DNA of 64,000 nucleotides from the IMG/VR virus record IMGVR_UViG_3300010371_000028, positions 32,001-96,000 of that record; one strand, given 5' to 3'. Positions within the stretch are counted from its first letter, which is position 1. Each line of letters opens with the position of its first letter. This stretch comes from a virus. A program made the position numbers and the translations under genes. Shown here piece by piece: positions 43,244 through 50,633 of the stretch. The notes below the pieces were generated by a model. It ran no database searches. It was not told where the DNA came from and was given only the letters and a program-made list of their open reading frames with translations.

Positions 43244-43894
43244 TCAGCGGGCGAAGACGAGCAGCGCGACCGTGCCGGCCATGCACAACGGCGCAAATAG
43301 CATCGTCTCCACCCGGTTCCCCGTCCGCTTCACGATCGGGAGCATGTAGTGCCCGCGGCGGGGCCACAGCAGCGGGCAACCTTCCTTGGTTAGGCAGTCG
43401 CCCACGAGATGCGCGGCTATCCCAACGCCGACGGAGAACGGAAGCCAGCCCAGGTCTTGCGGCATCGTGTACCCGACCACCGCGGCGAGGACAAACGCGA
43501 CGGTCGGGGCCAGCCCGCGGGCAAGATGCAGGGCTCGGAGCCCGAACGCGAAGAGCACGTAGATGGCCGATAGTGCGAACCAGCGGCCGAGTGTCACATC
43601 CCCAGCCCACGTGAGCAGCGGCATGAAGGCGGTGAACGCCAGCGAGTGCGTGGCATGGCGGTGACCGCCGGAGATCCGGTGCACGTACCGCGTCAGGACC
43701 CTGGTGATAGAGCCGAAAGTCCAGGCGATAGTGGCCTCCGGATGATCGGCGTCGCAAAGGAGTGCCGCGCCCGCCGTGGCGAGCAGTCCGGCCGTGATCG
43801 CGCCCCAATGCGGATGCACGCCGACCAGAGGCGCGGCGCACGCGAGCGAAGCGAACCCCATCGAACCGCTCAGGGCGTGCGTCCGGCCCATCAA
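43244..43894 (-). CDS. YdjM-like membrane metal-dependent hydrolase
   Basis: MMGRTHALSG, LLCDADHP, GHRHATHS, AHLVGDCLT..G.PLLWP motifs. Confidence 0.85.
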   Translation of the reverse strand: MMGRTHALSGSMGFASLACAAPLVGVHPHWGAITAGLLATAGAALLCDADHPEATIAWTFGSITRVLTRYVHRISGGHRHATHSLAFTAFMPLLTWAGDVTLGRWFALSAIYVLFAFGLRALHLARGLAPTVAFVLAAVVGYTMPQDLGWLPFSVGVGIAAHLVGDCLTKEGCPLLWPRRGHYMLPIVKRTGNRVETMLFAPLCMAGTVALLVFAR

Positions 43895-44310
43895 GAGGTA
43901 CCGCCAGGAGCGATAGGGCCGGTGTAGTCCGTCAGGGCGCGTATGAGGGTTTCCAGCGCGAGGTCGCGGTCCGCAGCGGCCAGACGGTGCAGTTCGTCGA
44001 GGAACATCCCGGACCCGTCACGCTCGATCATCTGCGCGATGCGCCGAGCCGTGGGGTCGAGCAGTTGCGCCCCGGCCGCGCGGCGGATCAGATCCCAGTC
44101 CACGGTCCGGTCGCGCAGCGCGATCCTGCCTTCCTGTTCGCGCCCGGCCCGGTAGAGCGCGCTGGCTTCCTCAAGTCGCATGGCGATCTGCCGCTGCACG
44201 CCCGGCACGTCCCAGGACGCGCGGCGTTCGACCGGGACCCCTCGTCGGCGCAGCAGGTATGCGGCGCCGGCTACTGCGGCGCCCACAAGCATGAATTCGC
44301 CGTTGCTCAC
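43891..44310 (-). CDS. Hypothetical protein with N-terminal hydrophobic segment
   Basis: GTGA overlap at 44307-44310; coupled to the YdjM-like gene. Confidence 0.65.
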   Translation of the reverse strand: MSNGEFMLVGAAVAGAAYLLRRRGVPVERRASWDVPGVQRQIAMRLEEASALYRAGREQEGRIALRDRTVDWDLIRRAAGAQLLDPTARRIAQMIERDGSGMFLDELHRLAAADRDLALETLIRALTDYTGPIAPGGTS

Positions 44311-44516
44311 GCCACGCTCCGGCTCATGGCGCCGAATGCCTGTCCGGGCACGGAAACCGGGAACATCGCTGTGATCAGCGGGCCGAACTCGTCGCGTTCT
44401 TCGCGGCTCATCCCGGCGAGGATCCCGGCGGCCATGGCGATGTCGCCTTTGCTGGCGGCGTTCATGGCGATCTCGACGCGGGCGCCGCGAGCCAGGTCGG
44501 CGTGTTCGATACTCAT
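44307..44516 (-). CDS. Small hypothetical protein
   Basis: GAAGGAG RBS. Confidence 0.65.
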   Translation of the reverse strand: MSIEHADLARGARVEIAMNAASKGDIAMAAGILAGMSREERDEFGPLITAMFPVSVPGQAFGAMSRSVA

Positions 44517-44530
44517 GGGTCTCCTTCAGG

Positions 44531-48660: not shown

Positions 48661-49397
48661 GTGTCGTGTCGGCGTGGCGGGTGACTGGCGCGACGGCGAC
48701 GGGGTGACGCCACGGGTCCGGCGACACGTGCCACCGGCCGACGACACGACTCGCGGTTCTGACACGCCTCGGCATTGCGCCGGGGGTGTCGCGTGCCACG
48801 TGCCGCAGGTGGCGTGTCCGGGTGCCCGTGTCGTTCGTCATGCGACACGCTCCTTGTCGGTCGTGTCGTCGCCACCCGTGGCGCTCGCGGCGTTCTGCCG
48901 GTCGCGGCTGCGGGTCTTGCGTACGAGAACGTCGTCGACCTTCACGCCGACGACCCCGAGCGCTTTGACGATCTGGGAGGCGGCGCGGCCGGGCAGGAGC
49001 TGGTCTGCGTTGCGGATCGCGTCGGCCTTCGACATCTCCGGCCATGCGCTCACTGTCTCGGTCAGCTGTGCCACATCGGCGTCGAGGTTCTGCATGGGCA
49101 GGTTCGACACGACACGTGCCGGACGGGGACGTGTCGCCACGGTGGGCTTGGGTGTGGCGGCCGGCGGGACCGTGGCACGGGCAGGCGTGTCCGTGTCGTC
49201 GGTTGTGTCGTTGCCGCGTGTCGTGTCGGCGGGAGCCACCGTGTCGGGTGTCGTGTCGCCGGCCGTGGCAGTGGCGCAGGGCGCCGTGGCGTGGCGCGTG
49301 TCGGTCGGCGTGCCGCCGTGTCGGGGTGTCGCCGTGTCGGCCACGCGTGCCATCCAGGGCGATGGGGTGTCGAGGGTCGCGAGATCCGATGCGTGTC
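48661..49397. repeat. Dense field of GTGTC/GACAC (CGTGTCG-like) short repeats; clt/parS-like candidate
   Basis: About 27 copies counted by hand in two clusters (48661-48867, 49106-49397), both orientations, several reading frames. Confidence 0.75.
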
Positions 49398-50193
49398 GGA
49401 CGGCTGCGATCTCTTGGATCAGCCGGTCGGTGCGAACCCTGTCGTGCGCTGCGCCCGAGACGCGCACGGCGGCGCGCAGCTTCCGGTTGACGCGCCGGCG
49501 CCGCTTGCCGGCGAGGAGCCAGCCGTTGATCGACGCGAGCCGGTCGGCCAGTTCTACGGCGTCGTCGAAGGCGTTGTTCTGCTGGATCTCCAGCGCGGTC
49601 TGGTCGGCCGCGGTGACGCCGAGCGCGGCGAGGAACCGCTGCTGCGCACTCTGCTTGATCTTGGCAAAAACACCGTCGGCGTCCTTGCCTTCGGCGGCGC
49701 GGCGGGCGCGCCGCTCGGGGACCATGCTGCGTTCCCACAGCCACGCGGCCACGAGCGGCGCGCCGAGGCGCACGAGGGCTTCCTGCGGAGAGGTGGCCTC
49801 GGTCGCCGACATGAACCCTGAGGCGCATGTGAGGACCCAGACGGCGAGCCCGTCGGCGCCGGCGTGGCCTTCGCGGGCGACGGCTGCGCGGGCACGGAGC
49901 GCGGATGCGAGCACCGCGATCTCCATGAACGCGAACAGGACGGCTTGGATCCAGACCGGCAGGTGCATGGTGCGGGTGAAGAAGTGCCACATGCCGGTCG
50001 CGGCGACGGAGGAGGCCATGGCGGCGGCCACGACGGTGAGGGTGTCGGCGGCCTTCTTCCCGCGCAGGGAGCGGGTGGCACGCCAGGCGAGGATCGCGGC
50101 TGCGATCACAGCGGCGCCCGACGCGGTAGCGAGCACCGGTACGGGGACCGAGTGGACGAGGTCGCCGAGCCGTTCGGTGGGTGTTGCGGTCAT
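48838..50193 (-). CDS. DUF2637/SpdA-like membrane protein with C-terminal HTH-like domain
   Basis: Four N-terminal TM helices (VAATGMWHF...FMEIAVLASAL...GAPLVAAWLW), coiled region, repeat linker, MSKADAIR C-terminus; GAAGGAGG RBS. Confidence 0.75.
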   Translation of the reverse strand: MTATPTERLGDLVHSVPVPVLATASGAAVIAAAILAWRATRSLRGKKAADTLTVVAAAMASSVAATGMWHFFTRTMHLPVWIQAVLFAFMEIAVLASALRARAAVAREGHAGADGLAVWVLTCASGFMSATEATSPQEALVRLGAPLVAAWLWERSMVPERRARRAAEGKDADGVFAKIKQSAQQRFLAALGVTAADQTALEIQQNNAFDDAVELADRLASINGWLLAGKRRRRVNRKLRAAVRVSGAAHDRVRTDRLIQEIAAVRHASDLATLDTPSPWMARVADTATPRHGGTPTDTRHATAPCATATAGDTTPDTVAPADTTRGNDTTDDTDTPARATVPPAATPKPTVATRPRPARVVSNLPMQNLDADVAQLTETVSAWPEMSKADAIRNADQLLPGRAASQIVKALGVVGVKVDDVLVRKTRSRDRQNAASATGGDDTTDKERVA

Positions 50194-50282
50194 GGGTCTC
50201 GCCTCCTTCAGTTGGCGTCGGGCGTATCAGGGCTCAGTGTATAACCCGTCATACGTCTTTCGGGGGTGGATATGATCCGGGC

Positions 50283-50633
50283 GTGGAGCGTGAGGAGATT
50301 GAGCGCGCCGCGGAGGCGCTACTCGCCGTCTCCCGCGCCGATGAGCGGGAGCGCGCGGAGTTCGTACGGGCTTTGAAGCAACGCGCCGAGGCGATCGCAG
50401 ATGACCGTGAGCGTCTCGATAAGACTCATTCGCTGGTTCGGTTGATGTTGGACGCGATCCCGGCGCTCTCGATGGTGCGTCATCTCGCGCTGGATCGTCT
50501 GCGTGCGCAGGCGGAGGCCGAGGGGGATCCGGAGCGCTGGTCGCACGGAGTGGTGGCGAAGCGATTTGGGATCACGCGGGCGAGCGCGCAGACGATCGCG
50601 AAAGGGCCGCGCGGAAAGGCTCCCAAGGGTTAG
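50283..50633 (+). CDS. Divergent HTH regulator of the transfer operon (putative)
   Basis: GTG 6 nt after TATGAT (leaderless); C-terminal SHGVVAKRFGITRASAQTIAKG. Confidence 0.7.
   Translation: MEREEIERAAEALLAVSRADERERAEFVRALKQRAEAIADDRERLDKTHSLVRLMLDAIPALSMVRHLALDRLRAQAEAEGDPERWSHGVVAKRFGITRASAQTIAKGPRGKAPKG

Follow-up and report, generated by a model that had tools for sequence, protein, structure and literature searches.

A predicted TraB-type DNA transfer module in a lineage of large soil actinomycete phages

A block of genes at positions 43244–50633 of a 64,000-nucleotide stretch of viral DNA probably, in our view, constitutes a working module for TraB-type transfer and spread of double-stranded DNA (dsDNA), inherited within a lineage of temperate soil actinomycete phages of about 105–133 kb. 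The stretch, referred to here as the window, comprises bases 32001–96000 of the linear, 132,777-bp IMG/VR virus record IMGVR_UViG_3300010371_000028 (G000), for which CheckV gives a completeness of 89%; G000 and the two relatives described below, G001 and G002, together span 89–100%. Among metagenomes, G000 DNA was found in soil samples only. Apart from one divergent open reading frame (ORF), the block lies on the minus strand. It resembles the TraB-clt-Spd systems of the plasmids pSVH1 and pIJ101, in which a single FtsK-like ATPase, hexameric, associated with the membrane, and able to recognise DNA through a domain of its own, is combined with short plasmid-specific repeats and membrane Spd proteins (PMC4170104), in that it holds an anchored FtsK-like ATPase with a putative DNA-recognition domain, a repeat field as a candidate cis site, and membrane proteins alongside. 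As chance ORFs are plentiful at the window's G+C content of about 69%, genes were called by third-position G+C (GC3).

The pump of the block is a TraB-like dsDNA translocase of the FtsK fold, 672 amino acids (aa) long (44531–46549, minus strand), with two N-terminal transmembrane helices, a motor domain, and a C-terminal winged helix. The longest ORF, 44531–46810, would add 87 Arg-rich residues; because this run overlaps the upstream gene by 228 nt and homologues begin at the Met of the shorter form, 44531–46549 most likely represents the true gene. A mis-start within 46549–46810 is to be expected from gene callers that choose the longest ORF. The hydrophobic helices span residues 71–89 and 120–138, and the protein carries a Walker A motif (GASGAGKS) and a LEEAP-type Walker B region; across 22 homologues 36 columns are invariant, GKS among them, and the catalytic ones are kept down to 27% identity. 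An AlphaFold (AF2) model built on 22 homologues has a predicted local distance difference test score (pLDDT) of 76.7, rising to about 90 in the motor domain, and in Foldseek it matches TcpA of pCW3 (6o1x), a conjugation coupling protein, and the FtsK motor (6t8g/2ius), with E about 1e-14 and TM-scores of about 0.6–0.67 by target. A sequence search of the PDB with the translocase gave no match. The fold is common to the EccC/EssC and HerA ATPases, and the best structural matches are the DNA pumps TcpA and FtsK. At the C-terminus (winged helix at residues about 585–672), a three-helix plus strand unit (pLDDT about 87) has a weak MarR_2 match (E 0.0058), and the plasmid homologues are annotated with a winged helix-turn-helix (HTH). 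An earlier interpretation made from the letters of the window alone (the sequence-only reading) had proposed a translocase with a transmembrane anchor and a C-terminal winged helix, and the two hydrophobic helices, the Walker A motif, and the modelled likeness to TcpA and FtsK bear this out.

Viral relatives of the pump were recovered by profile only: tblastn of the ATPase against 50,697 GenBank phages returned nothing at 1e-5, and a single-sequence scan of IMG/VR was likewise empty. A profile of the 22 homologues identified TraB-like genes at 54 IMG/VR loci and at 31 bacterial-genome loci, mostly of Streptomyces and Micromonospora. Among the 50 IMG/VR records searched, a PF10145 tape measure occurs in 14 and direct terminal repeats in several. 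A relative at about 33% identity is held by 128 plasmid records (112 from Streptomyces), and two homologues from Logan, P0006 and P0017, are 48–51% identical to the ATPase and lie on contigs of 128–129 kb. In a quick maximum likelihood tree of the motor domain (IQ-TREE, 68 rows), the G000 group has a support of 100 and falls in a large family with proteins of the Streptomycetaceae linear plasmids NZ_CP108855 and NZ_CP108210 and many 'provirus' proteins. [quoted passage not shown] Phages therefore carry FtsK-like Tra proteins of at least two clades. The row for the plasmid pSLE1 was cut at a false Walker A match, and its position in the tree is not interpretable.

All G000 proteins were compared with those of G001 (111 kb) and G002 (127 kb), the records with the closest ATPases. 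G001 is mostly collinear with G000 (tail proteins 63–86% identical, the YdjM-like hydrolase of the block 83%, ATPase 63%, GntR regulator 47%). G002, with an ATPase identity of 54%, keeps the order tape measure, capsid, portal, DNA-binding protein, YdjM, ATPase, 382-aa protein, membrane protein, and DUF2637 protein, with GntR further on. The head genes have been replaced in G001 (38–48 kb there, against window 20778–33921), in which TerL and the capsid-family protein are without match and the portal is 25% identical. More distant records of 105–108 kb retain the series ATPase, YdjM, and DNA-binding protein, followed by a TerL match in L037 and a portal match in L043. The ends of G000 adjoin inside G001 (94.3–95.0 kb) and those of G001 fall within G000, so the two records are circular permutations of one gene map, and at some stage, to judge from these maps, the genome is circular or has terminal redundancy. 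In IMG/VR both G001 and G002 carry the label 'provirus', with their recombinase genes nonetheless lying mid-record. No direct repeats of at least 18 nt were found bracketing the block, and since G001 and G002 also carry it in the same order and at the same place, it is continuous with the phage and no separate insert; on this point, flanks continuous with phage genes and no att-like boundary, the sequence-only reading has held.

A field of GACAC(G) repeats, our candidate for a clt-like docking site, occupies 48661–49397, on both strands. Its 737 bp contain 27 copies of GACAC/GTGTC where 1.7 are expected from the density in the window, confirming the internal repeat field that had been read from the sequence; 19 of the 49 CGACACG copies in the 64-kb window fall here, and the field is the strongest local 6-mer enrichment of the 133-kb record. 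Nineteen of the repeat copies lie in the first gene of the block, which encodes a 451-aa protein (48838–50193, minus strand), in the part coding for its Asp-Thr-rich linker, and eight lie in the 412-bp spacer past its stop. Six of the 27 are on the opposite strand, and the in-ORF sense copies are distributed over the three frames as 10, 4, and 2. Because copies occur on both strands, in three frames, and partly in non-coding DNA, a purely peptide-level origin is unlikely, while the peptide may have contributed.

Fields at the syntenic place in the two relatives use different words: G002 has GACACCCC in 12 copies and the 7-mer GACACCC in 14, and G001 has (C)GAGCGC 13 times in 500 bp, with CGAGCGC counted 11–14 times. 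A per-locus scan for the most locally enriched 7-mer in each fetched locus showed that most TraB relatives, viral and plasmid, carry an element-specific field with a word of its own 1–5 kb upstream of the ATPase, such as CCGGACC (12 copies, L009), GTGGCCA (14, L010), CGTCACC (9–14, L034–L047), GTTGCAA (19, L048), CCGCACG (17, L068), and GCGGAAA/CTTCCGC (8–15) in Micromonospora loci, one plasmid among them. TraB assembles on plasmid-specific 8-bp repeats in clt, and cis sites of Streptomyces plasmids may lie within coding regions, as sps does in spdA2 (PMC4170104). The occurrence of element-specific fields in the module agrees with this rule (PMC4170104), although the G000 repeat is a 5–7-mer core in about 27 copies over 740 bp and only a candidate site, as against the 8-bp clt repeats. 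A more distant FtsK-like clade, 21–25% identical, is found in the 24–155-kb IMG/VR records L049–L058, of which L049, L050, and L053 have terminal repeats; CGGACCG occurs 9–14 times in six of these loci, 1–2 kb upstream of the gene, and L052 has the near-identical CCGGTCC.

Contigs from an independent soil metagenome (X2) cover 42440–53597 at about 47x with few differences, and neither flank is matched at 90% identity. The left transition lies inside a homologous gene, which is 78% identical and then near-identical, and within the segment 51341–51649 is replaced by 634 other letters. A second data set of the same study (X3), likewise compared through contigs, has a G000-like left flank at low depth. 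This pattern would fit the exchange of an 11-kb regulatory-plus-transfer segment between related phages by recombination, and not an autonomous element.

The gene order of the block is paralleled on the two linear plasmids mentioned above, NZ_CP108855 of Streptomyces sp. NBC_00841 and NZ_CP108210 of Kitasatospora indigofera, where the nearest annotated relatives of the pump lie; they carry a DUF2637 gene, small genes, genes for proteins of 170–400 aa, an ATPase of about 700 aa with a winged HTH, and a protein of about 200 aa. The DUF2637 protein heads this order on NZ_CP108855, and a GntR gene lies upstream on NZ_CP108210, which also has ParA. The ATPases of these plasmids are 33% identical to that of G000 over 51–61% of the length, the two forming sister groups within one large clade; no BLAST similarity was detectable between the other module proteins and these plasmids, and no phage genes were found in the parts of the plasmids that were read. 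What had been called a Streptomyces-plasmid-type TraB module is thus a homologue of a Streptomycetaceae plasmid transfer module, and the name TraB in the curated sense does not apply (49 against 800 bits, see below).

A phage with a plasmid-type Tra has already been published in the form of pZL12 (phage ZL12, NC_013420; Zhong et al., 2010, J Bacteriol 192:3747), which the papers citing it describe as a plasmid-phage (PMC3583192, PMC4487206, PMC7157519), conjugative, in the account of one of them, through a principal tra gene together with two neighbours (PMC3583192), and which remained a singleton for 15 years (PMC7157519); its content is taken here from these papers and the GenBank annotation. 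Both pZL12 and pSLE1 (NZ_LN831788) resemble the window in having a divergent GntR gene, small and membrane genes, an FtsK-like Tra, and terminase and virion genes. Their Tra proteins are 725–774 aa long, with terminase, portal, and capsid within one to three genes after; the pSLE1 Tra is matched by the A1 profile (E 9e-25), and the nuclease domain of TerL is 45% identical between G000 and pZL12. G000 shares the pZL12-type layout, with a virion module, an FtsK-like Tra upstream of the terminase, and a divergent GntR, and differs in lacking ParA/ParB. Searches for ParA/ParB (PF02195, PF13614) gave no match in G000, G001, or G002, while the controls pZL12 and pSLE1 matched; the latter are circular plasmids of 86–90 kb, whereas the three phage records have integrases and are 111–133 kb. 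The capsid and most other genes are unrelated between G000 and pZL12/pSLE1, and the pZL12 Tra belongs to a different clade from the G000 ATPase, with the NF041214-like TraB of L128. What is specific to the present case is the lineage itself, integrase-bearing, without ParAB, and 105–133 kb in size, with a Tra clade in common with linear plasmids and not with pZL12, along with the syntenic, element-specific repeat fields in a DUF2637-type gene of three diverged relatives and the signs that the module is exchanged as a unit.

The sequence-only reading had gone further and proposed a phage–AICE hybrid. By definition, Int, Tra, and a Rep of AICE type (RepSA, RepAM, or Prim-Pol) occur together in an AICE, which is compact and has int at an end (Ghinet et al., 2011, PMC3218068). 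Like AICEs of the pSAM2, SLP1, and pMEA300 type, the phage has a tyrosine integrase, an FtsK/SpoIIIE-type Tra, a GntR-family regulator, and an Xis-like HTH protein, and in G001 and G002 only, a Prim-Pol gene is divergent from GntR. Unlike them, G000 is 133 kb long, has a full virion module and no Prim-Pol, and carries its integrase about 48 kb from tra. By size and arrangement G000 therefore falls outside the AICE definition, and the earlier reading needs correction on this point. The integrase (G000:26617–28104) is the only one in G000; a homologue occurs in G001, and in G002 a serine recombinase stands in for it. A search for the RepSA family gave no match anywhere, controls included.

Taken as a transfer module, the block might work as follows. 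The GntR repressor, perhaps together with the small divergent regulator, would silence the leftward arm, and upon derepression the membrane-anchored FtsK-fold ATPase would be made along with the DUF2637-like and other membrane proteins. We infer that the C-terminal winged helix of the ATPase would then dock on the GACAC(G) field of the phage genome in its circular form, excised or replicating, and that the ATPase would assemble as a hexameric motor pumping unprocessed dsDNA across a hyphal contact or a septal cross-wall. The phage genome could in this way reach neighbouring compartments or mycelia free of a capsid, besides ordinary infection by virions.

Several observations weigh against this interpretation. 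The translocase falls outside TraB as a curated family: it scores 49.2 bits (E 2.8e-13) on NF041214, over model positions 134–403 only and against a cut-off of 800, Streptomyces chromosomal FtsK scores above it at 66–68 bits, and in sequence the G000 ATPase is no closer to TraB than to chromosomal FtsK. The name TraB is an analogy that rests on context. Most repeats sit in the region coding for the Asp-Thr linker, and the G002 word GACACCCC reads Asp-Thr-Pro, so that part of the repeat signal could be peptide-driven; the repeats could also be sites for another protein. The Streptomyces model may, moreover, be inapplicable if the host, sampled here through soil metagenomes, is not mycelial.

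Among other explanations, the one we take most seriously, while considering it unlikely, is that the pump acts within one mycelium, moving phage genomes across septa or into spore compartments in support of lytic spread or inheritance, as a substitute for ParAB and with no transfer between strains. The lack of ParA and ParB in all three phage records, with both plasmid controls positive, is in keeping with such a role, as are the position of the module, with regulators on one side and late genes on the other within the main leftward arm, and the way in which plasmid Spd-type functions blur spreading and stability (PMC4170104). An integrated prophage, however, needs no partition system, and integrases are present in the lineage; the plasmid homologues of the module, for their part, lie on plasmids that already have ParA. 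It is very improbable that the record represents a large conjugative element or plasmid with a defective prophage or particle-forming remnant, in which the conjugative route alone is real. IMG/VR calls are made by computation, the maps of G000 and G001 are circularly permuted as those of a plasmid would be, and a PF10145 tape measure is present in only 14 of 50 viral records with TraB, but the genes for TerL, the portal fusion, the 1320-aa tape measure, the minor tail protein, and the capsid-family protein are intact and co-oriented, CheckV completeness is 89–100% for the three relatives, and ParAB is absent.

We give still less credence to the view that the block represents a mobile element in its own right, either an AICE or a plasmid cassette, which arrived recently as a passenger. 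The X2 match (42440–53597 at about 47x, with flanks unmatched at 90%) and a G+C content slightly raised at 46–48 kb (0.738) relative to the surroundings could be read that way. Neither att-like direct repeats nor, in or beside the block, an integrase or AICE-type Rep was found, however; the module occupies the same place in G001, G002, and distant relatives at 27–63% protein identity and is therefore old in the lineage, and the left edge of the X2 match lies within a gene that is homologous on both sides, as recombination between related phages predicts. Equally hard to credit is a role of the FtsK-fold ATPase outside transfer, in superinfection exclusion, as a secretion-type ATPase, or in defence or counter-defence. 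The fold is shared with EccC/EssC and HerA, and an RsbW-like ATPase and the YdjM hydrolase travel along with the gene, yet the best structural matches are TcpA and FtsK and not EccC or HerA, a C-terminal winged helix and an adjacent repeat field are present, the synteny is with plasmid transfer regions, and a PADLOC defence search on ten block proteins gave no match.

More tentatively, and with slightly more doubt than confidence, the transfer module may point to a broad and old class of integrative temperate actinomycete phages that are simultaneously AICE-like conjugative elements, combining an integrase, a GntR switch, a Rep, a TraB-like pump, a clt-like array in a DUF2637-type gene, and a full virion module, with the tra–clt cassette exchanged as an 11-kb unit among phages and, over the long term, with linear plasmids. 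If so, one replicon would move horizontally by two routes, each subject to its own limits of host range. In reviews of plasmid mobility, conjugation and carriage in phage particles figure as alternative lifestyles that are unlike in their costs, in the hosts they reach, and in the size of DNA they allow (PMC12282955). An element able to use both would be bound neither by the need of phages for a receptor nor by that of conjugation for contact, and could mobilise host DNA in two ways. The pZL12-like design recurs in a phage lineage that is unrelated to pZL12, larger, equipped with integrases, and of another Tra clade, and TraB-like genes are common in IMG/VR actinomycete virus records, with 54 loci. 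Current annotation tools type such elements as 'non-mobilizable' or 'provirus', and the question of capsid-independent transfer is directly testable in any cultivable lysogen.

Turning to the remaining genes of the block, the sequence-only reading had the YdjM, translocase, and multi-transmembrane genes and the GntR/UTRA, HATPase_c_2, and HTH_17 regulators in their proper places, as Pfam, hydropathy, and the model showed; three further assignments are weaker. It had called the 451-aa protein DUF2637/SpdA-like. The protein is best described as a diverged DUF2637/SpdB-like membrane protein on the basis of its ESM features, position, and C-terminal homology. Pfam DUF2637 (PF10935) has no match to it at E <= 0.01, nor at E <= 1 in six frames, and BLASTP against one plasmid DUF2637 protein was not significant. 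Its positional counterparts match PF10935 in G002 (E 7e-22) and G001 (E 0.012), its C-terminus is homologous to the G002 gene with that match, and its ESM Atlas neighbours are DUF2637/SpdB_N clusters (top cluster DUF2637, score 0.96). Its N-terminal transmembrane domain shares about 33% identity with genes that lie upstream of TraB in L059 and in L034, L036, L040, and L047. The name SpdA is wrong for it, because SpdA proteins proper are small DNA-binding proteins of 117–163 aa (PMC4170104).

Next in the block is a multi-transmembrane membrane protein of 193–228 aa (47740–48426, minus strand), with at least three hydrophobic segments (residues 57–75, 105–133, and 147–175) and identities of 62% in G001 and 43% in G002. 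Its real start is probably residue 36, the residue at which its ESM Atlas entry begins. A 382-aa protein follows (46582–47730, minus strand, GC3 0.89), in which a linker rich in Pro, Ala, and Thr accompanies a C-terminal domain that is conserved (residues about 198–380), with its C-terminal half 56–61% identical in G001 and G002; it has no family match in Pfam, PHROG, or NCBIfam. The gene for what had been described as an anchored helical protein is thus real, and hydropathy gives no clear transmembrane segment to anchor it. Just downstream of the translocase, a small conserved ORF of 69 aa (44307–44516, minus strand, GC3 0.84) is 76% identical in G001 and has no family match. The last gene encodes the YdjM-like membrane metal-dependent hydrolase of 216 aa (43244–43894, minus strand), which matches Pfam PF04307 (E 2.8e-20; 73 bits against a cut-off of 29) and phrog_20744 hydrolase, has counterparts at the same position in G001 (83% identical) and G002 (63%), and adjoins TraB relatives in L037, L041, and L048. 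The divergent ORF at the other end (50181–50633, plus strand, up to 150 aa), a possible small regulator, has a G001 counterpart with 91% identity over 136 aa, which makes it the neighbourhood's best-conserved gene, and in G001 too it is divergent from the DUF2637-like gene; its GC3 is only 0.71. The ORF read as a divergent HTH gene is accordingly real, and with no family match the HTH is without family support.

Upstream of the block, the leftward arm contains an RsbW-like anti-sigma/kinase ATPase (51752–52189, minus strand; Pfam HATPase_c_2, E 5.5e-10), a small HTH_17 DNA-binding protein of the excisionase/MerR-like kind (53587–53835, minus strand; PF12728, E 6.9e-6, 26.7 bits against a cut-off of 27), and at its head a GntR/UTRA repressor of the HutC type (53934–54800, minus strand; GntR E 1.7e-18, UTRA E 5.2e-21). 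Past the GntR gene comes a strong terminator, at 53916–53891, whose stem has 11 pairs, and a GntR homologue lies 5–8 kb upstream of the TraB relative in 27 fetched loci. A promoter scan gave nothing useful in this high-GC DNA.

Beyond the GntR gene and divergent from it, a 335-aa initiator-like ORF (55199–56206, plus strand) lies just upstream of a gene for a DnaB helicase (56113–57522, plus strand). Within this ORF, at 55525–55751, there are three to four tandem units of 61–62 bp, each with the palindrome GACGGACAGTCCGTC, which look like an iteron origin within its initiator gene. The same place is taken by the Prim-Pol gene in G001 (14341–14802) and G002 (121844–122431), so the lineage has exchanged one replication module for another; a second Prim-Pol is present in G002 (38727–39332), and none was found in G000. 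A second DnaB-like helicase is encoded outside the window at G000:5171–6502, and it and the window DnaB are 34% and 35% identical, respectively, to one and the same G001 region, so that G000 appears to hold two helicase genes.

Almost all genes from about 54.8 kb down to 8 kb lie on the minus strand, including the virion genes, which were assigned by PHROG searches. The virion module starts downstream of the transfer block with the large terminase TerL (32443–33921, minus strand; phrog_979/38/2), which is 40% identical to the TerL of Streptomyces phage OnionKnight and had no match in five TraB-bearing records, and continues with the portal fusion (28073–31111), the capsid-family protein (20778–22313), the minor tail protein (15912–17141), and the tape measure (11099–15061), all on the minus strand. 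The capsid-family protein had no meaningful matches to plasmids. Between the block and the late genes lie a conserved DNA-binding protein (41598–42599, minus strand; phrog_1568, E 1.2e-19), which is 75% identical in G001 and 69% in G002 and follows TraB and YdjM in L037, L041, and L043, and a tRNA-Gly(CCC) called by ARAGORN at 41100–41171 on the minus strand.

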